From UHGV virus genome UHGV-0208736: a DNA stretch of 31,562 nt; one strand, written 5' to 3'. Every line of letters starts with the position of its first letter. Positions within the stretch are counted from its first letter, which is position 1. Source of the stretch: a virus. This document shows, piece by piece, positions 4,338 through 24,185 of this stretch. Both the position numbers and the translations under genes were made by a program. The notes beneath the pieces are model-generated. The model was not told the DNA's origin and ran no database searches. It saw nothing but the letters and a program-made list of their open reading frames with translations.

Positions 4338-4831
4338 GCCTTGAACTCCCCGAAGTATATTTCCGCGGCTCTTTGGTATACGCGCGACGCTTCTTCTATA
4401 GTGTCAAAATAGCCAAGGTGGATGTATTTGTTATTGACGCCTATTCTGGCGCGCCACCTGCCAGAGGGTATTTGGTAGACCCCTATCGCACCGCTAGTGT
4501 TATGTGGTGAGCAGTCTCGGTTCTGAATCTGCTGGCTCCTGGTTGCTGGCCTTATATTATTTATGGCGTTATTAGCCCTGTTACGGTCTTTATGGTCAAG
4601 CTCACCATTATGATATTCTCCGTAGACGAAAGCCCATGCCAGATGGTGGGCTTTTATTCTTACACCGGAGACCGTAATAACTATGTATCCTTTGTCGTTT
4701 GGTCCCCCGGCTACCTCCCCCGCATTTCTACCTTTTATGCTTACTTTCCGTGTAAATATGCCTGTTTCGGGGTCATAGTTAAGAAGACGTTTCGCCTCCT
4801 CAATATCAGGCCTTCTAGTTAATTTACTCAT
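4334..4831 (-). CDS. HNH homing endonuclease with AP2-type DNA-binding domain
   Basis: 165 aa; HNH core HHLAWAFVYGEYHNGELDHKDRNRANNAINNIRPAT; AP2-like GVYQIPSGRWRARIGVNNKYIHLGYFDTIEEASRVY; ATGA overlaps on both sides. Confidence 0.8.
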   Translation of the reverse strand: MSKLTRRPDIEEAKRLLNYDPETGIFTRKVSIKGRNAGEVAGGPNDKGYIVITVSGVRIKAHHLAWAFVYGEYHNGELDHKDRNRANNAINNIRPATRSQQIQNRDCSPHNTSGAIGVYQIPSGRWRARIGVNNKYIHLGYFDTIEEASRVYQRAAEIYFGEFKA

Positions 4832-5019
4832 TTCAACACCAGTACCAGCTCTTTACGTCCAAACGCCGTAACGTTACCTGTTACATCTTCGATAACCAGT
4901 TTACCGTTCGACTCTACGAACACCGTATCAACAGCAACAGGCTGGCGGGTTTTAACATTGAAAATCATGTCGCCAGGTACGATGTCACGTGCTGGTTTGC
5001 GGTCATATTCATGTTTCAT
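4828..5019 (-). CDS. hypothetical protein (63 aa), first gene downstream of promoter P1
   Basis: ORF with AAGGAA SD 7 nt upstream of ATG at 5019; stop overlaps HNH start. Confidence 0.5.
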   Translation of the reverse strand: MKHEYDRKPARDIVPGDMIFNVKTRQPVAVDTVFVESNGKLVIEDVTGNVTAFGRKELVLVLK

Positions 5020-5049
5020 TTCTCAATTCCTTATATTGTTGGTGTAGGA

Positions 5050-5334
5050 TTAACTATAATAGTTAGCTATTAGGTCGTCAACCTGTTTAAACGAACCAAC
5101 GACAAAAACATTTGCGCCACGTTTACGCATACGCTCGTGTTCTCGTAACTGGTGCGGGTCAGGTTTCGTGTTTTCGTCTTTCTTCACCTCTACGAACCAG
5201 ACGGTGCCGCCGGGGAGAATTACCAGCAGGTCGGGGGCGCCGGAACGCCCCTCGTACGAAAGTTTACGAACGAGGCCGCCCAGGGCCTCGAATCGCTCTT
5301 TTGCGTATTTCTGTACGCGTCCCTCTTTAGTCAT
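5050..5334 (-). CDS. VRR-NUC domain nuclease (PD-(D/E)xK superfamily)
   Basis: 94 aa; PDLLVI...VWFVEVKK...PHQLREHERMRKRGANVFVV matches VRR-NUC D...E-x-K pattern. Confidence 0.7.
   Translation of the reverse strand: MTKEGRVQKYAKERFEALGGLVRKLSYEGRSGAPDLLVILPGGTVWFVEVKKDENTKPDPHQLREHERMRKRGANVFVVGSFKQVDDLIANYYS
5053..5081 (-). promoter_or_regulatory. sigma70-type promoter P1 (minus strand): -35 TTGACG, 17-nt spacer, -10 TATAGT; contains 20-bp conserved core AACTATAATAGTTAGCTATT (plus 5052-5071)
   Basis: Reverse complement reads TTGACG-N17-TATAGT; the 20-bp core is identical to 11861-11880 and near-identical to 9362-9381; lies at the 3' end of the VRR-NUC gene immediately upstream of gene 4828..5019. 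Confidence 0.5.
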
Positions 5335-9307: not shown

Positions 9308-9362
9308 ATCTCGATTCCTCAGTTTTCAGTTTACTCCGGGAACTGCCCGGCCAGTGATTAGA

Positions 9363-9392
9363 ACTATAATAGCTAACTATTCGGGTTGTCAA
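9363..9392 (-). promoter_or_regulatory. sigma70-type promoter P2 (minus strand): -35 TTGACA, 18-nt spacer, -10 TATAGT; core AACTATAATAGCTAACTATT (plus 9362-9381)
   Basis: Reverse complement reads TTGACA-N18-TATAGT; the core differs from P1/P3 only by inversion of the central 4 bp; located in the 89-bp intergenic gap upstream of the SSB-like gene. Confidence 0.5.
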
Positions 9393-11830: not shown

Positions 11831-11861
11831 TTGTTTCTCTCCTCTCGTTTGGTATGGGCTA

Positions 11862-11890
11862 ACTATAATAGTTAGCTATTCACATGTCAA
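11862..11890 (-). promoter_or_regulatory. sigma70-type promoter P3 (minus strand): -35 TTGACA, 17-nt spacer, -10 TATAGT; core AACTATAATAGTTAGCTATT (plus 11861-11880)
   Basis: Reverse complement reads TTGACA-N17-TATAGT; 20-bp core identical to P1; about 30 nt upstream of the early operon start codon. Confidence 0.55.
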
Positions 11891-11954: not shown

Positions 11955-12170
11955 ATGCAACCATCTGAACTAGGCATCCGTGTAGAACAACGCCGTAAAG
12001 AACTCGGCCTCTCCCAGCGCCGTCTGGCTGTCCTGGCTGGCGTTTCCCAGGGCGCGATTAACCAGCTGGCACTCGGTGTAACCCAGGACGTCCGCCCGGC
12101 AACGCTGTTTAAACTGGCGGAAGTGCTGGAAGTAGATGCCAAGTGGCTGGCGTTCGGTGAAGGGGCTTAA
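11955..12170 (+). CDS. Cro/C1-type (XRE family) helix-turn-helix transcriptional regulator
   Basis: 71 aa; RKELGLSQRRLAVLAGVSQGAINQLALG is a canonical XRE HTH; SD AAGGAG 8 nt upstream; only plus-strand gene inside the minus-strand module. Confidence 0.75.
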   Translation: MQPSELGIRVEQRRKELGLSQRRLAVLAGVSQGAINQLALGVTQDVRPATLFKLAEVLEVDAKWLAFGEGA

Positions 12171-12186
12171 CGCCCCCTTTCTTTTT
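12162..12186 (+). terminator. rho-independent terminator after the HTH regulator gene
   Basis: GGGGC-TTAAC-GCCCC hairpin (stop codon within loop) followed by CTTTCTTTTT. Confidence 0.5.
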
Positions 12187-12188
12187 AC

Positions 12189-14450
12189 CTATTCCAAATC
12201 TTCCTCGGTTACTATCAGCATCTCATTCGGTTCGTATATTGTCTTCGGAATCTTGTTATCGTTTATGCCCCACGGCAACCGGTATTGCTTAGGTATAGGC
12301 CTGTTGTTGTTATCCAGACCTGAGACGATAATCCCGGCCTCGTGCATCTCCTCCAGTTTCTTTCGAAGGTCGTTATTAGCATTAATTGGTACGCCGTAAC
12401 TATCTTCTTTCGCCGCTTTGACGATAGCTGACATAGAGAACCCTCGTTTATCGTCACCCTGCTCCTGCAATTTACCCAATGCGTAAATAACCGTAGCCTC
12501 TTTGGTGTCCAGTTTCTCGAACTGGCCTACCTTTTCTTTAACGGCTTCCTTCTGTTCGTCGGTCAGACCTTCTACTTTCTTCACGAAGACAGAGAATGCG
12601 TTGAAGTTAACAAAGACATCAATATGCGGATTTCCTGCGTCAAAATCGCGTACATCATCACTACTATACCCTTCCGGAAGACCCATGAAGTTGTGAGTTG
12701 GTTCTTTCTTTTCTGGCGGCTCCGCTATCTGAATCTTCTGTATTACGAACCCTCTGGCTTTTTGCCGTTCTCCGTTTCGGTTCTTTATGTGGTACAGGTT
12801 TATCTCTAAGTTATTGTCGTTGTCCGGCTTATGCAGGAACATCCCGTTGTCGATGGAGTTGTGGAAATCACTACCACCCTTCGGCATCATGCCGTTCTCG
12901 GATGGTACTGTTTCGTCGATGTTTTTAGTCGGGTGCACCATAGCGCCTACCGCGGCGTTAAGCGTCGACGCTATTTCGTTAAGCGCCTGCGCCGCCTCTT
13001 TCATCGACCTGTTGTCGTTCTCGTCAAAACCAGGTATGCAAGTTTGCAGGGTATCAAACGTAACCTTTACAATTTTCTCTTCACCGGCAACACGACGCAT
13101 CATTCTCACCGCCTGGCGGCGCCACACCTCATCGAGTAAGTTACACCCTTCCGCGACACAATCGATGATGTGCAAGCGGTCAAGGCTATCGCCGAGGGCA
13201 ATCTGTAAAGATTTTTTATGCCTCTCGAACGACTGCGCACCTTCTCCAGCGAAAATGAACGCATGCCCTTCAGCAACCTCTGCCCCGCCGAACGCATATC
13301 TTTTTTCGGCAGCAATAGCGGCGTCAATCGCCATACTAAATGTTGACTTACCAGTGTGGGACTTTGCACAAATGTAGAATGATTCGTTAGTCTGCATAAG
13401 ACCGTCCACTACGGAGTAAGCAGGTTCTTTTTCTACTTCCGGCTCGTCTTCAAGGTCTTCAAGCGTGCAAGTTACAGGCTCCTCGTTCTCTGTGCGGTGC
13501 AGTTCTTCAATATCTTCATCCGGTAAATCAGGCAGAGCCGCACGGATGCTATTAATACTGATAGGTTGCTTGTCTACGTTAAGCTCGTCCGGAAGACCGC
13601 ACATACGCAGGGCCAAATGCTGCCGACGGTTTAGCTCAGTGCAAGCGCCATTGTTTGTATGCTGGCAGACAAAGCGCACTTCTTTACCGTCAAGCATGAT
13701 GCTTGTGGAGCCTTTGCCGGTATGCAGATGTTCGTTAGGGCATGGAACTTCGTACCCGCGCCCGGAAGATAAAGCGTCAAGGCCAAGCTCCGCTTCGCAG
13801 AAATGCGCTATATCAGCGTTAAGCCCATGCTCATCGGCAGCAAGTGTCTTAGCTTCACGTTTACGCAGCCCCATCTCTTCGGCTTTCTTGATGTACCGCT
13901 CCGCACGGATAACGCGCCCTTCAGTAACAGTTATCTTTGACTCTTTATGAGGCAGGTAGATAAGGCGGTTGCCGTCTTCGGTGCAGTGGTCGCGCAACGC
14001 TTCGTCTATTTCTAACTCCGCACAAATAGCACGTTGCACCATCCATGCATCGTTAGAGTTAAATGGAGTGCGGGCAGGTACGAGAACGCGGAAAGCGTAG
14101 TCACCGTTTTTACACGCGTGCTGGTGCGACGCCGTTGTGTGCAGAATATTGAAGAACGTCGCGTTCTTGAATTTGCGGGTAAGGTCGCGGTACTGAGTAC
14201 GGTTGAGATGGTCAAAGTCGAACTTAACCACACTATCTTCCAGAATCGCGTTCTTACGGCGACCCCCAACAGGTGCAATTGCTTTCTGCTTAATCTTGGC
14301 AGCGTCGTACTCTTCCTTAGACCACGACGGATCCACGGATAAACGCTTGGATGTATCGCAGACATACTCTACGAACTGCTCCAGCGGCATTTCACGAGCT
14401 ACAGGGTTTTTATCGAATGTGTTGCGCAGTGTCGCAAAAACAATATTCAT
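12189..14450 (-). CDS. DNA primase-helicase-like replication protein: archaeo-eukaryotic primase (AEP)-type N-terminal domain plus P-loop NTPase domain
   Basis: 753 aa; AEP-like motifs KFDFDH (DxD) and TTASHQH (sxH); Walker A AKSHTGKST; Walker-B-like LHIID. Confidence 0.6.
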   Translation of the reverse strand: MNIVFATLRNTFDKNPVAREMPLEQFVEYVCDTSKRLSVDPSWSKEEYDAAKIKQKAIAPVGGRRKNAILEDSVVKFDFDHLNRTQYRDLTRKFKNATFFNILHTTASHQHACKNGDYAFRVLVPARTPFNSNDAWMVQRAICAELEIDEALRDHCTEDGNRLIYLPHKESKITVTEGRVIRAERYIKKAEEMGLRKREAKTLAADEHGLNADIAHFCEAELGLDALSSGRGYEVPCPNEHLHTGKGSTSIMLDGKEVRFVCQHTNNGACTELNRRQHLALRMCGLPDELNVDKQPISINSIRAALPDLPDEDIEELHRTENEEPVTCTLEDLEDEPEVEKEPAYSVVDGLMQTNESFYICAKSHTGKSTFSMAIDAAIAAEKRYAFGGAEVAEGHAFIFAGEGAQSFERHKKSLQIALGDSLDRLHIIDCVAEGCNLLDEVWRRQAVRMMRRVAGEEKIVKVTFDTLQTCIPGFDENDNRSMKEAAQALNEIASTLNAAVGAMVHPTKNIDETVPSENGMMPKGGSDFHNSIDNGMFLHKPDNDNNLEINLYHIKNRNGERQKARGFVIQKIQIAEPPEKKEPTHNFMGLPEGYSSDDVRDFDAGNPHIDVFVNFNAFSVFVKKVEGLTDEQKEAVKEKVGQFEKLDTKEATVIYALGKLQEQGDDKRGFSMSAIVKAAKEDSYGVPINANNDLRKKLEEMHEAGIIVSGLDNNNRPIPKQYRLPWGINDNKIPKTIYEPNEMLIVTEEDLE

Positions 14451-14575
14451 TTCTTTTTCTCCGCACGTTCTAAGGCTTCCTGCATACGACGCATTGCGCG
14501 GTTCATCTTTACCGGTGCGAAGAAATCAGCGCCGTGTTTCTGGCGGCGTAGCTGTGGAACTATTAACTTCGTCAT
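14447..14575 (-). CDS. unannotated 42-aa basic peptide (MTKLIVPQLRRQKHGADFFAPVKMNRAMRRMQEALERAEKKK)
   Basis: AAGGA SD upstream of ATG 14575; TGA overlaps primase ATG (ATGA); below track cutoff. Confidence 0.35.
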   Translation of the reverse strand: MTKLIVPQLRRQKHGADFFAPVKMNRAMRRMQEALERAEKKK

Positions 14576-14625
14576 TGTATAATCCTTGTGCTTACTTTGA
14601 TGATTTGTACTTTAACCCCGACGTT

Positions 14626-14859
14626 CTAGCGTTGGGGTTTCTTTTGCCTACGTGCAGCATTAATCCACTCTCCTTCGCTCTGGTAGAAACTGCAATCAAG
14701 AATATCCTCTATAGAAAATTTAACTATTTTAGTGGGTCCACAAAAGTTATAAGGGAAAAGTTCTACATAACACCCATCGTCAGTTATATTTGACGCAATC
14801 TTGAAATAATATTTAACGCTGCCGTCTTCACGGAAGCTACAACCCATACGCCCAATCAT
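14626..14859 (-). CDS. hypothetical protein (77 aa), AT-rich gene
   Basis: ORF with ATG overlapping stop of the upstream HTH gene; markedly lower GC than flanking genes. Confidence 0.45.
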   Translation of the reverse strand: MIGRMGCSFREDGSVKYYFKIASNITDDGCYVELFPYNFCGPTKIVKFSIEDILDCSFYQSEGEWINAARRQKKPQR

Positions 14860-15026
14860 TTCACGTTCTCCTTAATCCACGCTTCAACTTTATTACGGTC
14901 AAATGTTCCCGGCATCCGGCGGCCCATTACTTTAACGCTGCAATCAGGAAACTTTCCACTCTTAATCCAGTTATTAATTGTCTGACGCGTCACCCCGATA
15001 CGTTCTGCAACTTCATTGATAGTCAT
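14856..15026 (-). CDS. unannotated AlpA/excisionase-type helix-turn-helix regulator (56 aa), first gene of the primase operon
   Basis: MTINEVAERIGVTRQTINNWIKSGKFPDCSVKVMGRRMPGTFDRNKVEAWIKENVK; HTH plus conserved W matching the AlpA/Xis-like HTH_17 pattern; SD AGGAGA 5 nt upstream; below track cutoff. Confidence 0.6.
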   Translation of the reverse strand: MTINEVAERIGVTRQTINNWIKSGKFPDCSVKVMGRRMPGTFDRNKVEAWIKENVK

Positions 15027-15131
15027 TTAACGTTCTCCTATGTAAGATGTACCGAAGTATAAGGCGGTAACTTTGTAAAAGCAACCAAAACACCACACAA
15101 AGTTACTAAGATACAAAAGATGCTACTGGTA

Positions 15132-15160
15132 TTGACTTTTACTAAGAAATATGGTAAGCT
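15132..15160 (+). promoter_or_regulatory. candidate late promoter: -35 TTGACT, 17-nt spacer, extended -10 TGgTAAGCT
   Basis: Seen directly in sequence; lies in the 360-bp gap between the divergent early and late modules. Confidence 0.45.
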
Positions 15161-15340
15161 CAGCCTGAGCTTGTGAAGTATGAACAAGCGACCGCGGCGC
15201 GGGCAGGTAACGGAGCGGGACGTAAGTCCTGAGTGTAGTTACGCTGACGCGTTCGGAAGGGCCATACTCTATTGCTTGTGTAAAAAGTAACTGGTTTACT
15301 GAGATTACGCCGTTTCTATGTTTAAATGATAAGGACTAGC

Positions 15341-15368
15341 GCCCCGCTTTAAGGCGGGGCTTTACTTA
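15341..15368 (+). terminator. intrinsic terminator at the end of a ~200-nt leader, 18 nt upstream of the first late gene
   Basis: GCCCCGC-TTTAAG-GCGGGGC hairpin followed by TTTACTTATC; located between the promoter at 15132-15160 and the SD of the i-spanin gene. Confidence 0.55.
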
Positions 15369-15385
15369 TCGAGAAAGGGGGAAAC

Positions 15386-15772
15386 ATGAATCTTAAAGCA
15401 ACTGTCGTAGCAGGAGCATGTTTCATCATCCTGGCTTACGCACACGGCATCTACCAGTATCGCAGCGGCTGGAACGAAGGCCGGGCGAATCTCGTTTCGC
15501 AGCAACAGCAGAAAGCACAGGCCGAGTTAGCGAAGAAAACACAACGGCAGCAGCAGAACGAATCGAAGGCTGCAGCCGCTGACATCGAAGGCAAGACGAA
15601 ATCAGAGGTGATTACCCGTGAAGTCGTTAAGTACATTAAAACGCCTGGTCGCAGCGTGTGCACTTTCGATGATGCTCGCGTCCTGCTCAAGTCCCGCGCC
15701 GTCGCAAACGCCAATTCCATCCCCGGATACGACGATGATGCAGCCGCCGTGCAAACTGGCCGCGCCAAGTAG
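15386..15772 (+). CDS. i-spanin (Rz-like inner-membrane spanin subunit)
   Basis: 128 aa; N-terminal TM segment ATVVAGACFIILAYAHGIY followed by Gln/Lys/Ala-rich coiled-coil periplasmic domain; strong SD GAGAAAGGGGG; contains embedded o-spanin gene in another frame. Confidence 0.6.
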   Translation: MNLKATVVAGACFIILAYAHGIYQYRSGWNEGRANLVSQQQQKAQAELAKKTQRQQQNESKAAAADIEGKTKSEVITREVVKYIKTPGRSVCTFDDARVLLKSRAVANANSIPGYDDDAAAVQTGRAK

Positions 15773-15881
15773 CGACGCGGACGAGGATTTGGCTATCGAC
15801 GTTCAGAATGCCGAATGTGTACGGCAGCTAAGACTGAAAGTGTTCATGTTGCAGGATTACGTGCGGAATATTCTGGAATAG
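15618..15881 (+). CDS. o-spanin (Rz1-like outer-membrane lipoprotein), overlapping the i-spanin gene in the +1 frame and extending 109 nt beyond it
   Basis: GTG start with SD AGAGGTG; lipoprotein signal MKSLSTLKRLVAACALSMMLAS|C with lipobox LASC; Pro-rich mature region SSPAPSQTPIPSPDTT. Confidence 0.6.
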   Translation: MKSLSTLKRLVAACALSMMLASCSSPAPSQTPIPSPDTTMMQPPCKLAAPSSDADEDLAIDVQNAECVRQLRLKVFMLQDYVRNILE

Positions 15882-15963
15882 TTGCCTTGCATGTTGGAAT
15901 AATTTATTCTTGACATGTAAATCCGGGTGGCCCGGATTCCAACGTCCAGGGGACATACTGACT

Positions 15964-16665
15964 ATGAATCGTTTTTTACGTTATCCGTTCCAGGAAGAAG
16001 CTGGGGCAGAAGATAAATCTGGTGGCGGTGATGCGCCGAAAATGTTCACCGCTGAAGAAGTTCAGGCGCTGATTGAGAAAGAAGTCGCCGGGCTTAAGGC
16101 TAATCAGGAAGCATTGCTGGCGGAGAAGAAAGAAGCCGCTCGTAAAGCAAAAGAGGCCGAAGAAGAACGGCAGCGCGCACACCAGGAGGCGTTAAAAGCC
16201 GCTGGTAAGATGGACGAGTTCGAAAAGACGATTCGTAGCCAGTATGACCCGGTGTTAGCCGAGAAAGATGGTCGCATCTCCAGAATGGCAGAGCGCATCC
16301 TCGGCAGCGAACGTAAAGCGGTGTTAGGCTCTTTCGCGGGTGACTTTATTACCCCGGAAGCAGTAGACATTCTTGCACCGTTCGTTAAGACTGAGTTTGA
16401 AGGTGATGATGTGGTTACTAAGTTTGTCGGTGCAGATGGCAACGTAATCACGACTGACCCGGAACAGTTCCGCAAATACCTGCGCGAACATAAAGCGTTT
16501 TCGCATTTGATTAAAGCAAATGCAGCTTCCGGCGGCGGGGCTTCCGGCAGCAAAGGCGGCGGGGCCGCACCAGCGTTTAAAGACATGAGTGAAGCAGAGC
16601 GTTTAGCTCTGTATAAATCGAACCCTGCCGAATTTGAACGGCAACTTAAAGCCCTGAGGAAATAA
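15964..16665 (+). CDS. capsid scaffolding protein (233 aa from ATG 15964; the track start at 15910 is TTG)
   Basis: Charged coiled-coil-rich protein (EEVQALIEKEVAGLKANQEALLAEKKEAARKAKEAEEERQ) immediately upstream of the major capsid gene. Confidence 0.55.
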   Translation: MNRFLRYPFQEEAGAEDKSGGGDAPKMFTAEEVQALIEKEVAGLKANQEALLAEKKEAARKAKEAEEERQRAHQEALKAAGKMDEFEKTIRSQYDPVLAEKDGRISRMAERILGSERKAVLGSFAGDFITPEAVDILAPFVKTEFEGDDVVTKFVGADGNVITTDPEQFRKYLREHKAFSHLIKANAASGGGASGSKGGGAAPAFKDMSEAERLALYKSNPAEFERQLKALRK

Positions 16666-16667
16666 TA

Positions 16668-17717
16668 ATGGCAATTACCACTATCGGCGATATCGTAACT
16701 GGCAACATCCCGGTCCTTGCGTCTTATATGACAGAGGACCCGGTAGAAAAAACCGCGTTCTTCCAGTCCGGTATTCTCACCCCTACCCCGTACGCTGCCG
16801 AGATTGCTCGCGGTCCGTCCAACATCGCTAATATCCCTTTCTGGAAAGCGATTGATACATCTATCGAACCGAACTACTCGAACGACGTATACCAGGACAT
16901 CGCAACCCCGCGTAATGTCCAGACCGGTGAGATGATGGCTCGCGTAGCGTACCTGAACGAAGGTTTCGGTCAGGCGGACCTGACGGTAGAACTGACCAGT
17001 CAGAACCCGCTGCAATCCGTAGCGTCCCGTCTGGATAACTTCTGGCAGCGCCAGGCACAACGTCGTCTGATTGCTACCGCGCTCGGCCTGTACAACGACA
17101 ACGTAGCTGCGACCGATGCGTACCACGAGCAGAATGACATGGTTATCGACGTGTCTGCTACTATGGGCTTCGACTCTGGCGCGTTCATCGACGCTACTCA
17201 GACTATGGGTGATGCGCTGATGGGTAACGGTGGTGAAGTGCTGGGTGCTATCGCGATGCACAGCTTCGTTTATGCGCAGGCCCGTAAGCAGCAGCTTATC
17301 GACTTCATCCGCGATGCGGACAACAACACCATGTTCGCCACCTACCAGGGCTATCGTGTGATTGTTGATGACAGCATGACCGTAGTCGGTACTGGCGGCA
17401 GCCGTAAGTTCATCTCCATTATCTTCGGCAACGGCGCTATCGGTTACGGCGAAGGTAACCCGGTCAAACCGCTGCACTACGAGTACGAAGCGTCCCGTGG
17501 TAACGGTGGTGGTGTCGAAACCCTGTGGACCCGTAAGACCTGGTTACTGCATCCGTTCGGCTACAGCTTCACCAGCGCAGTAATCACCGGCAACGGCACC
17601 GAGACCGTCGCACGCTCCGCTTCCTGGCAGGACCTGGCGAACGCCTCCAACTGGAACCGTGTGGTTGAGCGTAAGCACGTGCCGATTGCCTTCCTGGTAA
17701 CTGGTGTAGGCGCTTAA
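16668..17717 (+). CDS. major capsid protein
   Basis: 349 aa; follows scaffold with SD GAGGAA; strongly biased codon usage; followed by strong UUCG-loop terminator. Confidence 0.65.
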   Translation: MAITTIGDIVTGNIPVLASYMTEDPVEKTAFFQSGILTPTPYAAEIARGPSNIANIPFWKAIDTSIEPNYSNDVYQDIATPRNVQTGEMMARVAYLNEGFGQADLTVELTSQNPLQSVASRLDNFWQRQAQRRLIATALGLYNDNVAATDAYHEQNDMVIDVSATMGFDSGAFIDATQTMGDALMGNGGEVLGAIAMHSFVYAQARKQQLIDFIRDADNNTMFATYQGYRVIVDDSMTVVGTGGSRKFISIIFGNGAIGYGEGNPVKPLHYEYEASRGNGGGVETLWTRKTWLLHPFGYSFTSAVITGNGTETVARSASWQDLANASNWNRVVERKHVPIAFLVTGVGA

Positions 17718-17732
17718 GGTTAAGCTATAATC

Positions 17733-17760
17733 GAGAGGGACTTCGGTCCCTCTTTTCATT
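17733..17760 (+). terminator. rho-independent terminator after major capsid gene
   Basis: AGAGGGAC-TTCG-GTCCCTCT hairpin followed by TTTCATTT. Confidence 0.6.
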
Positions 17761-17776
17761 TACTAAGAGGTAAAGT

Positions 17777-23030: not shown

Positions 23031-24185
23031 TTAGTATGTTGATTTGGGGTTCATATCTCGCAGCATTTCAACAGGTATACTTATACGGGACACCTCGCCG
23101 TATCGTTTATGGTATGTAATCACATTTGCGCTCCTGCCGGAATAATAGCCGCCTTTACTAGAATACTCATCTTTAGCCGCTAATGTCTGGTGTTGCTCAA
23201 CAATTAGAAGATTAGTCTCTTTAACCGCCCTGTGATGAAGGTGGCCCGTATGGACATATGTGAACTTACACTGCCCGTACATCTCACGATACTTACCAAT
23301 TATAGACTGCTCTACCCTAGTAAAGTTAGAGCAATGCCCGTGGTGCGCCGAAATCATACAATCCCCGAACTTGTACGCATAATACGGCGATACCTCCCGG
23401 TTAACCTCAACACGAGGCTCGTTTGTGTACACCTCATAGAACATCTCTCTGAGCCACAGAGAAGAACTAAGGTCGTGGTTTCCCTCGCAAATAAGAAGTT
23501 TAACCTTCTTGTGTTTTCGCAGGCACAGCGAGACCGCCAGCTTGATAACCTTAACGGCTGTACGTATCATTTTAAACAGGCGACTATCCGCTGAAAGAAT
23601 ATGGCCGCTCATAGGGGTCATTGCCTTCATGCCATCGTAGTGCATCTGGTCCCCTAAGAAGTTAATGATACACTCCCCGCTCTGCGGACTCATACAAACC
23701 GCACTGTTGAACCAGTCAACTGCGAGAGATTCCGCAATTGTGGTGTCGTAATCATCTCCGCCTTCTTCTTGACACGCCAGCATACCGATGTGATGGTCCG
23801 TTATTGTGTAAAGATTTAATAAGTCGTCATCTGTGTCATTTTTAAGCAAAGTGGCCGGTTTATACTTAGGTAAATCTTTTTTCATCTCGTCCACAACGGC
23901 TTTCATCAATTCGACCTGACGTTCAGCGTCGGTGTCAGTCTTAACCCATTGCAGCTTAGTGTTGCCGAACTCGTCCACAAGTGACGACGTCCCTTTAATC
24001 TTGTATCCATCTGGCACAAGGTGACTAACGTCTCGCCCGTGACCTACGCCTTTCTTTGCCAGCTTCGCCTTACGGATACGAATAACGCGGTCTGAGATGC
24101 CGTATTTACGGGCTATATCGATATTCTTCATCCCGGCATTCAATTCTTCCTGTAACTGCTCATCGGTTATTTTCTTCTGGGCCAT
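23031..24185 (-). CDS. HTH-fused calcineurin-like metallophosphoesterase (Mre11/SbcD- or class III phosphodiesterase-like motif set)
   Basis: 384 aa; N-terminal HTH IDIARKYGISDRVIRIRKAKL; complete phosphoesterase motif series TDHH (DxH), FLGDQMHYDG (GD), ICEGNHD (GNHD), SAHHGH, HTGHLHH (GHxH); SD GAGGA. Confidence 0.65.
   Translation of the reverse strand: MAQKKITDEQLQEELNAGMKNIDIARKYGISDRVIRIRKAKLAKKGVGHGRDVSHLVPDGYKIKGTSSLVDEFGNTKLQWVKTDTDAERQVELMKAVVDEMKKDLPKYKPATLLKNDTDDDLLNLYTITDHHIGMLACQEEGGDDYDTTIAESLAVDWFNSAVCMSPQSGECIINFLGDQMHYDGMKAMTPMSGHILSADSRLFKMIRTAVKVIKLAVSLCLRKHKKVKLLICEGNHDLSSSLWLREMFYEVYTNEPRVEVNREVSPYYAYKFGDCMISAHHGHCSNFTRVEQSIIGKYREMYGQCKFTYVHTGHLHHRAVKETNLLIVEQHQTLAAKDEYSSKGGYYSGRSANVITYHKRYGEVSRISIPVEMLRDMNPKSTY

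Follow-up and report, generated by a model that had tools for sequence, protein, structure and literature searches.

What is the function of a 56-codon gene that encodes a helix-turn-helix (HTH) protein, heads the helicase-primase operon and faces a late promoter in the virus genome UHGV-0208736 (31,562 nucleotides (nt), analysed over its full length and called the window here)? An earlier reading of this DNA, made from its letters alone, took the product to be an AlpA-type regulator of the early-late transition. Comparison with related phages identifies the open reading frame (ORF) as the orthologue of an early core gene in the Guernseyvirinae (Kagunavirus and Jerseyvirus), and it points to the loss of a large segment as the reason why this gene now lies opposite a late promoter. 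As argued below, the protein could be an early regulator that binds its own divergent control region, a proposal that we regard as evenly poised between right and wrong.

A conserved gene for a stand-alone winged helix

The gene and its ribosome-binding site are as follows.

14856..15026, minus strand: gene for the 56-amino-acid (aa) winged-helix protein of the HTH_17/excisionase family, supported by its ORF, profile matches, AlphaFold2 (AF2) model and conservation.
15035..15039, minus strand: Shine-Dalgarno sequence AGGAG, 8 nt 5' of the ATG, read directly from the sequence.

The 56 codons begin with ATG and encode the protein MTINEVAERIGVTRQTINNWIKSGKFPDCSVKVMGRRMPGTFDRNKVEAWIKENVK. The start is unambiguous because AGGAG is found 8 nt upstream and an in-frame TAA stands directly 5' of the ATG. 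Thus, the sequence-only reading was correct in describing a 56-codon ORF with a good Shine-Dalgarno sequence.

The window belongs to Kagunavirus (Guernseyvirinae; virulent siphoviruses of E. coli and Salmonella), and its nucleotide identity to Golestan, KMB36, K1ind1 and others is roughly 88-97%, depending on the region. By tblastn, 443 phage records encode the 56-aa protein, with identities of 69-100%; these phages belong wholly or almost wholly to the virulent Guernseyvirinae, both Kagunavirus and Jerseyvirus. IMG/VR holds 44 distinct orthologous nucleotide sequences, each with 56 intact codons and, relative to the window, a ratio of nonsynonymous to synonymous substitution rates (dN/dS) of 0.03-0.16. 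Together, the 443 records and the 44 intact orthologues under this degree of constraint argue that the ORF is a real gene rather than a chance occurrence, and the conservation in related phages on which the earlier interpretation depended is amply documented.

The family is already known: it is routinely annotated, yet uncharacterised. EcoPhCCP1 encodes a protein that is 100% identical, annotated as 'excisionase and transcriptional regulator', and the GenBank/RefSeq labels of other orthologues include 'helix-turn-helix domain protein' and 'DNA-binding transcriptional activator'. No functional study of the gene was found in the literature on Kagunavirus, Jerseyvirus, MB78 and Jerseyvirinae. A HMMER profile search of 1.8 billion representative proteins recovered a narrow Guernseyvirinae clade and otherwise generic or multi-HTH relatives of HTH_17, none with an informative function; the most distant clear homologue (P0017) sits on a 1.5-kb contig.

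Profile comparisons assign the protein to two families. It passes the thresholds of Pfam HTH_17 (PF12728; 38.6 bits, E=1.3e-9, threshold 27) and of the NCBIfam model for excisionase-family DNA-binding proteins, TIGR01764 (32.7 bits, E=7e-8, cutoff 28.8), and it matches PHROG 66, 'excisionase and transcriptional regulator', at E=3.5e-11. Membership in the AlpA family (Pfam Phage_AlpA, PF05930) was rejected, since the score of 14.2 bits lies below the threshold of 21 (E=0.04) and the alignment spans residues 4-32 only. Consequently, the product is less of a 'textbook AlpA/excisionase-like HTH' than had been stated: the excisionase half of that description stands, but the AlpA half does not.

The fold is consistent with these assignments. 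An AF2 model built from nine orthologues (mean pLDDT 84) has helices at residues 3-10 and 14-23, strands at 30-33 and 36-42 that form a beta hairpin (30-42), and a further helix at 44-54; this is the winged-helix topology of helix, turn, recognition helix, beta-hairpin wing and C-terminal helix. When the model is compared with the PDB by Foldseek, RacA, BldC, Pukovnik Xis, N-terminal domains of the MerR family, RdfS and lambda gpNu1 lead, with the top matches at a probability of 0.9-0.99 and a template-modelling (TM) score of about 0.55-0.65. In a sequence search of the PDB, the sole match is again Pukovnik Xis (E=0.17). The protein is therefore a stand-alone winged helix of the MerR/excisionase type, for which 'AlpA-type' is right at the superfamily level only, and apart from the C-terminal helix it has no effector or oligomerisation domain.

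The first gene of the helicase-primase operon

The operon and its promoter comprise the following features.

15056..15084, minus strand: predicted promoter (PL) of the HTH/helicase-primase operon, with hexamers conserved in relatives.
14626..14859, minus strand: 77-aa ORF whose start overlaps the HTH stop (ATGA at 14856-14859); PHROG 27179, E=5.6e-42, with no function assigned there.
14447..14575, minus strand: conserved 42-aa ORF whose stop overlaps the helicase-primase start; PHROG 23061, E=6.8e-34.
12189..14450, minus strand: replicative helicase-primase of 753 aa; PHROG 3228, E=7e-296; Pfam AAA_25, E=9e-17.

The cistrons of the window thus follow one another in the order HTH, 77 aa, 42 aa and helicase-primase, and the ATGA shared by the first two is consistent with translational coupling. 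In every relative inspected (Golestan, Shashou, KMB36, SE2, K1ind1, SETP3, Ro145c2, EcoPhCCP1 and fEg-Eco19), the HTH gene is the first cistron before the helicase-primase, and the small ORFs in between vary. PL has the -35 hexamer TTGCTT (15084..15079), a 17-nt spacer and the -10 hexamer TATACT (15061..15056). In an alignment of 11 relatives these hexamers are invariant or nearly so, while the flanking DNA has diverged, and the arrangement TTG[CA]TT-17-TATACT is present 29-43 nt 5' of the HTH ATG in 41 of 43 IMG/VR loci. Taken together, the overlapping ORFs, the conserved promoter hexamers and the synteny give good support to the view, already put forward in the sequence-only reading, that the HTH gene is the first gene of the minus-strand primase operon, with PL as its predicted promoter.

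Between the 77-aa and 42-aa ORFs, in a gap of 50 nt, lies a hairpin (14614-14639). On the plus strand, antisense to the operon, its 11-bp stem is followed by a T-rich run, which is missing on the minus strand. One possible role is antisense termination, another the processing or stabilisation of the mRNA.

The position of the gene is matched by its probable time of expression. An RNA-seq time course of the Kagunavirus vB_Eco_K1B4 classes just four genes as early, among them the 'helix-turn-helix domain' gene _008, and assigns _004 (DNA binding) and _005 (AAA domain) to the middle class (PMC12645636). Gene _008 is probably the orthologue of the HTH gene, because the gene order in K1B4 matches that of the cro-like gene, helicase-primase, two small ORFs and HTH.

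Candidate binding motifs and a second regulator

If the protein acts on the DNA next to its own gene, a recurring site might be expected there. An unbiased k-mer enrichment of the HTH-adjacent control regions of four genomes (the window, Golestan, K1ind1 and SE2, not all of which are mutually alignable by BLAST) gave AGTTAC/GTAACT as the top hexamer by a wide margin. The window has 4 copies, Golestan 3, K1ind1 4 and SE2 5, where 0.3-0.5 would be expected; in 4/4 genomes the HTH-adjacent region is, alone or tied, the densest 400-nt segment for AGTTAC. In 43 IMG/VR loci taken together, AGTTAC occurs 7.4 times per kb within the 450 nt 5' of the HTH gene and 0.78 times per kb elsewhere. The copies have the extended context (A/T)AGTTAC(T/C) and occur in both orientations, which argues for a motif at the level of DNA rather than RNA. 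In the window they start at 15067, 15101, 15237 and 15287, and two of them lie among the promoter elements.

15067..15072, no strand assigned: AGTTAC/GTAACT copy 1, within the PL spacer, identified by enrichment.
15101..15106, no strand assigned: AGTTAC copy 2, between two divergent -35 hexamers, in the context CAAAGTTACTAAG that is conserved in window-type relatives.

This pattern makes AGTTAC a suggestive candidate for the motif bound by the HTH_17 protein.

Other repeats of the region were considered as operators and set aside. The perfect inverted repeat GTAACTTTGT/ACAAAGTTAC, which flanks the -35 hexamer of PL, is not shared by relatives with an 89% identical protein. The sequence TTACTRAGA is present in 4 copies versus 0.33 expected, which lie 5' of a -35 hexamer (15103-15111), in a promoter spacer (15139-15147), in the leader (15296-15304) and just 5' of the ribosome-binding site that follows the capsid terminator (17760-17768); as an operator it is of uncertain significance, since the motif was defined post hoc, and the position of that fourth copy also speaks against it.

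A second regulator is encoded at the far end of the operon.

11955..12170, plus strand: gene for a Cro/DicA-like HTH_3 protein, convergent with the helicase-primase gene; Pfam HTH_3, E=1.3e-12.

Against the DicA subfamily profile this protein scores 44.9 bits, which is under the cutoff. Three near-consensus leftward promoters on the minus strand, TTGAC(A/G)-17/18-TATAGT (5051-5081, 9361-9392 and 11860-11890), have in common the palindrome GCTAACTAT-T-ATAGTTAGC, which covers spacer and -10 element and is perfect in the third copy only. The third promoter is back to back with the Cro/DicA-like gene. The GCTAACTAT-T-ATAGTTAGC sites are likely to be the operator set of this HTH_3 regulator.

A late promoter brought next to the gene by the loss of 13 kb

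On the other side of the control region, the window contains a promoter and leader that read away from the HTH gene.

15132..15160, plus strand: strong sigma-70 promoter of the rightward operon; the same promoter is present at both paralogous sites in relatives.
15161..15274, plus strand: structured 5' element of the late leader RNA, from RNAalifold and a covariance model.
15341..15368, plus strand: strong intrinsic terminator that closes the leader about 20 nt 5' of the spanin ATG at 15386, with a stem and a T-rich run.
15166..15199, no strand assigned: crossover interval between the HTH-side and the spanin-side promoter-leader repeats, deduced from alignments.

In the window the HTH gene is divergent to the promoter-leader of the spanin-scaffold-capsid operon, as the sequence-only reading had noted. 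This part of its claim is true of the window but not of the relatives, where the gene faces an operon of small genes. In KMB36 and Golestan the HTH gene is opposite a rightward cluster of about 12-15 small genes, which is followed by holin, endolysin, more small genes, small terminase and the genome end. Beyond the genome end come large terminase, portal, head morphogenesis and decoration protein, and only then a second copy of the same promoter-leader, ahead of spanin, scaffold and major capsid. The late promoter of the relatives is thus about 13 kb from the HTH gene, past lysis genes, terminase and portal.

Alignments locate where the two regions are joined in the window. Positions 12000-15275 match relatives at about 34-37 kb, positions 15132-16700 match at about 5 kb, and the segment common to both, 15132-15275, matches both genome locations. 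In a three-region alignment, the window is of the HTH-side type through the promoter and the first ~35-40 transcribed nt and of the spanin-side type after that. No record that spans the junction was found: of 486 matching records, 0 reach a query coverage of 80%. The leader core occurs exactly twice in Golestan, and the leader of the window is matched at 232 places in 189 records. At the ends of the window the situation is different. The last 400 and the first 400 bases are contiguous in relatives (tail protein, then tailspike), and the 31562/1 junction is covered to at least 80% by each of 58 records, the best at about 87% identity. Because its end and start are contiguous in relatives, the window is read as a closed circle of 31,562 bp.

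Relative to its relatives, then, the window is short of about 13 kb, which hold the small early genes, holin, endolysin, both terminase subunits, portal and head morphogenesis. The segment was lost either by a real deletion, which would make this a defective genome, or by a collapse of the assembly across the repeat. In either case, the alignments indicate that the HTH gene faces a late promoter as a by-product of the 13-kb loss between paralogous repeats and not by designed geometry. This bears on the last element of the earlier claim. The preference for a regulator over an excisionase stands, since no integrase is annotated in three complete relatives (see below), but the link to the late promoter rests on an artefactual juxtaposition.

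The genes downstream of the late promoter belong to the structural operon, which opens with an i-spanin (15386-15772, plus strand) whose 3' end is overlapped by an o-spanin lipoprotein ORF (15618-15881, plus strand). In relatives the spanins lie about 8-9 kb from holin and endolysin, across the genome end. Their distance from those genes and their leading place in the structural operon put part of the lysis cassette under the control of the late leader.

The late leader RNA and its terminator

The rightward promoter has TTGACT (15132-15137), a 17-nt spacer and the extended -10 element TGgTAAGCT (15152-15160). With a near-consensus -35 and an extended -10, it should not need any obvious activator. 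A palindrome, AAGCTCAG-C-CTGAGCTT, spans the -10 element and the predicted start at 15156-15172 and is perfect in the window; it creates a -10-like repeat, which reads TAAGCT..TGAGCT in the window and TACGCT-ACC-TACGCT in SE2. As an operator it was set aside, being only partly conserved.

The leader is about 200 nt long from promoter to terminator, and its 5' part is structured. RNAalifold, applied to seven copies, predicts a long helix (CCGCGGYGCG/CGCRUUCGG) in which C-G and U-A pairs replace one another, and an apical hairpin that covaries so that each sequence still pairs (GGGAC/GUCCU, CACGU/ACGUG and GGGCGC/GCGCCC). The covariance model scores 128 bits in the window and also matches Golestan at 5009-5123 and 37631-37745, K1ind1 at 4438-4550 and SE2 at 23101-23200. 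Rfam has no match over the whole window at gathering thresholds, and only noise at E<=5 over 15100-15400. The element precedes the late operon in Kagunavirus and in the Jerseyvirus SE2, and it is found at the HTH side in window-type phages only; the model does not detect it in the HTH-side leaders of K1ind1- and SE2-type phages, which led us to abandon the view that the RNA is common to all HTH-adjacent leaders. By this comparison, the HTH-side copy, which precedes the rightward small-gene operon, is best read as a lineage-specific duplication. In the terminator at the leader end, 7 of the 8 base pairs of the stem are G-C and a T-rich run follows; the structure is present in both the minimum-free-energy and the centroid folds.

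Because the promoter is near-ideal and is followed by a structured leader and a terminator, any early-late control at this site is more likely to be antitermination than activation. The arrangement suggests that antitermination there could proceed either through a put-like cis-acting RNA or through a trans factor. No homologue of Q or N is recognisable in this phage group; for Q, this draws on 20 small proteins of Golestan scanned against Pfam (see below).

An early regulator or something else?

How these elements might work together can be outlined as follows. Host RNA polymerase would transcribe the leftward operon (HTH, 77 aa, 42 aa and helicase-primase) from PL, a moderately strong sigma-70 promoter that is back to back with a strong rightward promoter. 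The 56-aa protein would be made immediately after infection and would bind the divergent control region, for which the (A/T)AGTTAC(T) clusters are the best candidate sites. There it would modulate early transcription, perhaps by auto-activation of its own replication operon, in the manner of AlpA of Gram-negative phage-inducible chromosomal islands (PICIs), or instead by a Cro-like shut-off of the divergent promoter. Such an early regulator, whether activator or repressor, is the function that we favour at even odds of being correct, and a regulatory DNA-binding role is in any case the sensible default for a protein of this kind and more plausible than that of an excisionase.

Several observations weigh against this proposal. 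The enrichment of AGTTAC could be due to another binder (the Cro-like HTH_3 protein or a host factor) or to shared descent. The 10-bp inverted repeat GTAACTTTGT/ACAAAGTTAC in the control region (15067-15076 and 15097-15106) is found only in the window and EcoPhCCP1. The rightward promoter beside the HTH gene differs between lineages and the protein stays conserved, which argues against tight co-evolution of the protein with that promoter. Finally, the time points of the K1B4 RNA-seq are coarse, and _008 was matched to the HTH ORF by gene order only.

What is constant across lineages is that the HTH gene lies upstream of, and is co-transcribed with, the gene for the replicative helicase-primase. 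This, together with a weak similarity to plasmid replication and partition DNA-binding proteins (NF038291 at 13 bits, SopA, and Par/RacA folds), would fit a replication accessory whose winged HTH marks the phage origin or helps to load the helicase-primase and has no part in transcription control; the clustered short AGTTAC repeats could then be iteron-like. The matches to replication and partition families are, however, far under threshold, and the AGTTAC copies are unlike typical iterons in being present in both orientations, at irregular spacing, over ~450 nt that include transcribed leaders. Moreover, the long C-terminal region of the helicase-primase could itself recognise DNA. We consider this role unlikely. 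A host-directed early protein, which would bind host DNA or a host factor for take-over and have no phage target, is more doubtful still. Like many host take-over genes, the HTH gene is early and small, and its fold recurs in the chromosome-anchoring RacA and in nucleoid-associated regulators; yet its strict position at the head of the replication operon and the purifying selection in phages of both E. coli and Salmonella fit a core phage function, and the variable small genes of the right cluster are more plausible as take-over genes.

Two further roles are suggested by the neighbouring cis elements and by the family name. The strong promoter, the repeat of the -10 hexamer, the ~200-nt leader and the terminator before the first late gene form a layout like that used by lambda Q or Pseudomonas aeruginosa AlpA, some databases call orthologues of the 56-aa protein 'PrtN pyocin activator', and no antiterminator of the Q family came up when 20 small proteins from the right cluster of Golestan were scanned with Pfam. 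The 56-aa protein might on these grounds be an antitermination factor that drives readthrough of the leader terminator into the late genes. But P. aeruginosa AlpA is an eight-helix, Q21-like protein with an N-terminal ring in the RNA exit channel and a C-terminal HTH (PMC9371919), and the AF2 model of the 56-aa protein is all winged HTH, with nothing to form a nozzle. The -10-like hexamer of Kagunavirus, TGAGCT, does not have the critical A at position 2, the promoter beside the HTH gene in K1ind1- and SE2-type phages comes without the leader element, and the covarying leader fits a protein-independent, put-like cis-acting RNA equally. Antitermination by this protein is accordingly very improbable, and the same low probability applies to its most ambitious form, in which the protein is the trans-acting switch of the Guernseyvirinae that binds the AGTTAC clusters and controls leader-terminator readthrough. 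Such a switch could be a direct, minimal antitermination or anti-pausing factor or could act together with the structured leader RNA; if it existed, the subfamily would have a Q-like early-to-late switch whose protein is unrelated to all known antiterminators and much smaller than any of them. An excisionase, that is, a recombination directionality factor that partners an integrase, is scarcely credible, despite the matches to the TIGR01764 'excise' domain and PHROG 66 and the Pukovnik Xis hit in the PDB. The annotations of three complete genomes, Golestan (78 coding sequences), K1ind1 and SE2, contain neither an integrase nor a site-specific recombinase, and no candidate integrase neighbours the HTH gene within the window, in agreement with the earlier statement that none is evident. 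The Guernseyvirinae are virulent, and for Golestan the published description reports no genes for lysogeny (PMC7203180). These findings make a plain excisionase role very unlikely, and in a phage group without an integrase the 56-aa protein is better not regarded as an excisionase.

Comparison with known systems

The early-regulator proposal can be set against several better-known proteins. In gene position and probable logic, the closest analogue is the AlpA of PICIs, a small HTH activator that heads and auto-activates an operon containing pri-rep (PMC6092414). The 56-aa protein shares with AlpA of the Gram-negative PICI EcCICFT073, and with CP4-57 and P4 Vis, that it is a small stand-alone HTH protein encoded by the first gene of a primase/replicase operon. 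It differs in falling short of the Pfam AlpA threshold, in having no P4-type integrase beside it and in belonging to a virulent phage rather than an integrated island.

In structure, mycobacteriophage Pukovnik Xis (PDB 4j2n) and RdfS (8dgl) have the same topology of HTH, beta-hairpin wing and C-terminal helix and are among the best matches. Relative to the HTH_17/excisionase family, the 56-aa protein has no partner integrase and its phage is not temperate, so that a recombination-directionality role could not apply. Streptomyces BldC (PDB 6ama and 6amk), a minimal MerR/Xis-like regulator of similar size that matches with a TM score of about 0.63 and a probability of 0.99, indicates that this fold, as a single free-standing domain, can suffice for genuine transcriptional regulation. 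BldC binds cooperatively to short direct repeats. The likeness does not extend to the family profile, since the 56-aa protein scores 16.9 bits against the NCBIfam BldC cutoff of 77, and organism and regulon are unrelated.

Lambda Cro, P2 Cox and 186 Apl are likewise small early DNA-binding proteins encoded beside back-to-back promoters. As Cox and Apl illustrate, excisionase-like proteins can double as transcriptional repressors or activators. The present case differs from them in that the match to Pfam Phage_Cox is at E=0.043, there is no lysogeny switch, and a separate Cro/DicA-like HTH_3 gene is present. With the lambda Q and P. aeruginosa AlpA modules, the likeness is confined to the neighbouring cis elements (promoter, -10-like repeat, leader and terminator), and the ring segment that those proteins place in the RNA exit channel is missing from the 56-aa protein. 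Q proteins have no sequence match to it and, by Foldseek against the PDB, no fold match; P. aeruginosa AlpA was also rejected as a homologue or mechanistic template, given its eight-helix, Q21-like structure.

Implications for the Guernseyvirinae

As a new ORF, the HTH gene matters little, for its orthologues are mostly annotated in the >440 sequenced Guernseyvirinae. Its label matters more. Many of these phages are candidates for phage therapy, and 'excisionase' wrongly suggests a potential for lysogeny in them. With no integrase and an early operon position, 'DNA-binding or regulatory protein' is the preferable name.

The leader-terminator module and the fused-repeat structure of the window are of more interest than the HTH gene itself. 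Experimental study of the transcription programme of the subfamily is limited to one coarse RNA-seq time course. Two HTH regulators, three leftward promoters that bear a palindrome, and a covarying leader that ends in a terminator together offer a compact system for the switch from early to late expression in these phages.

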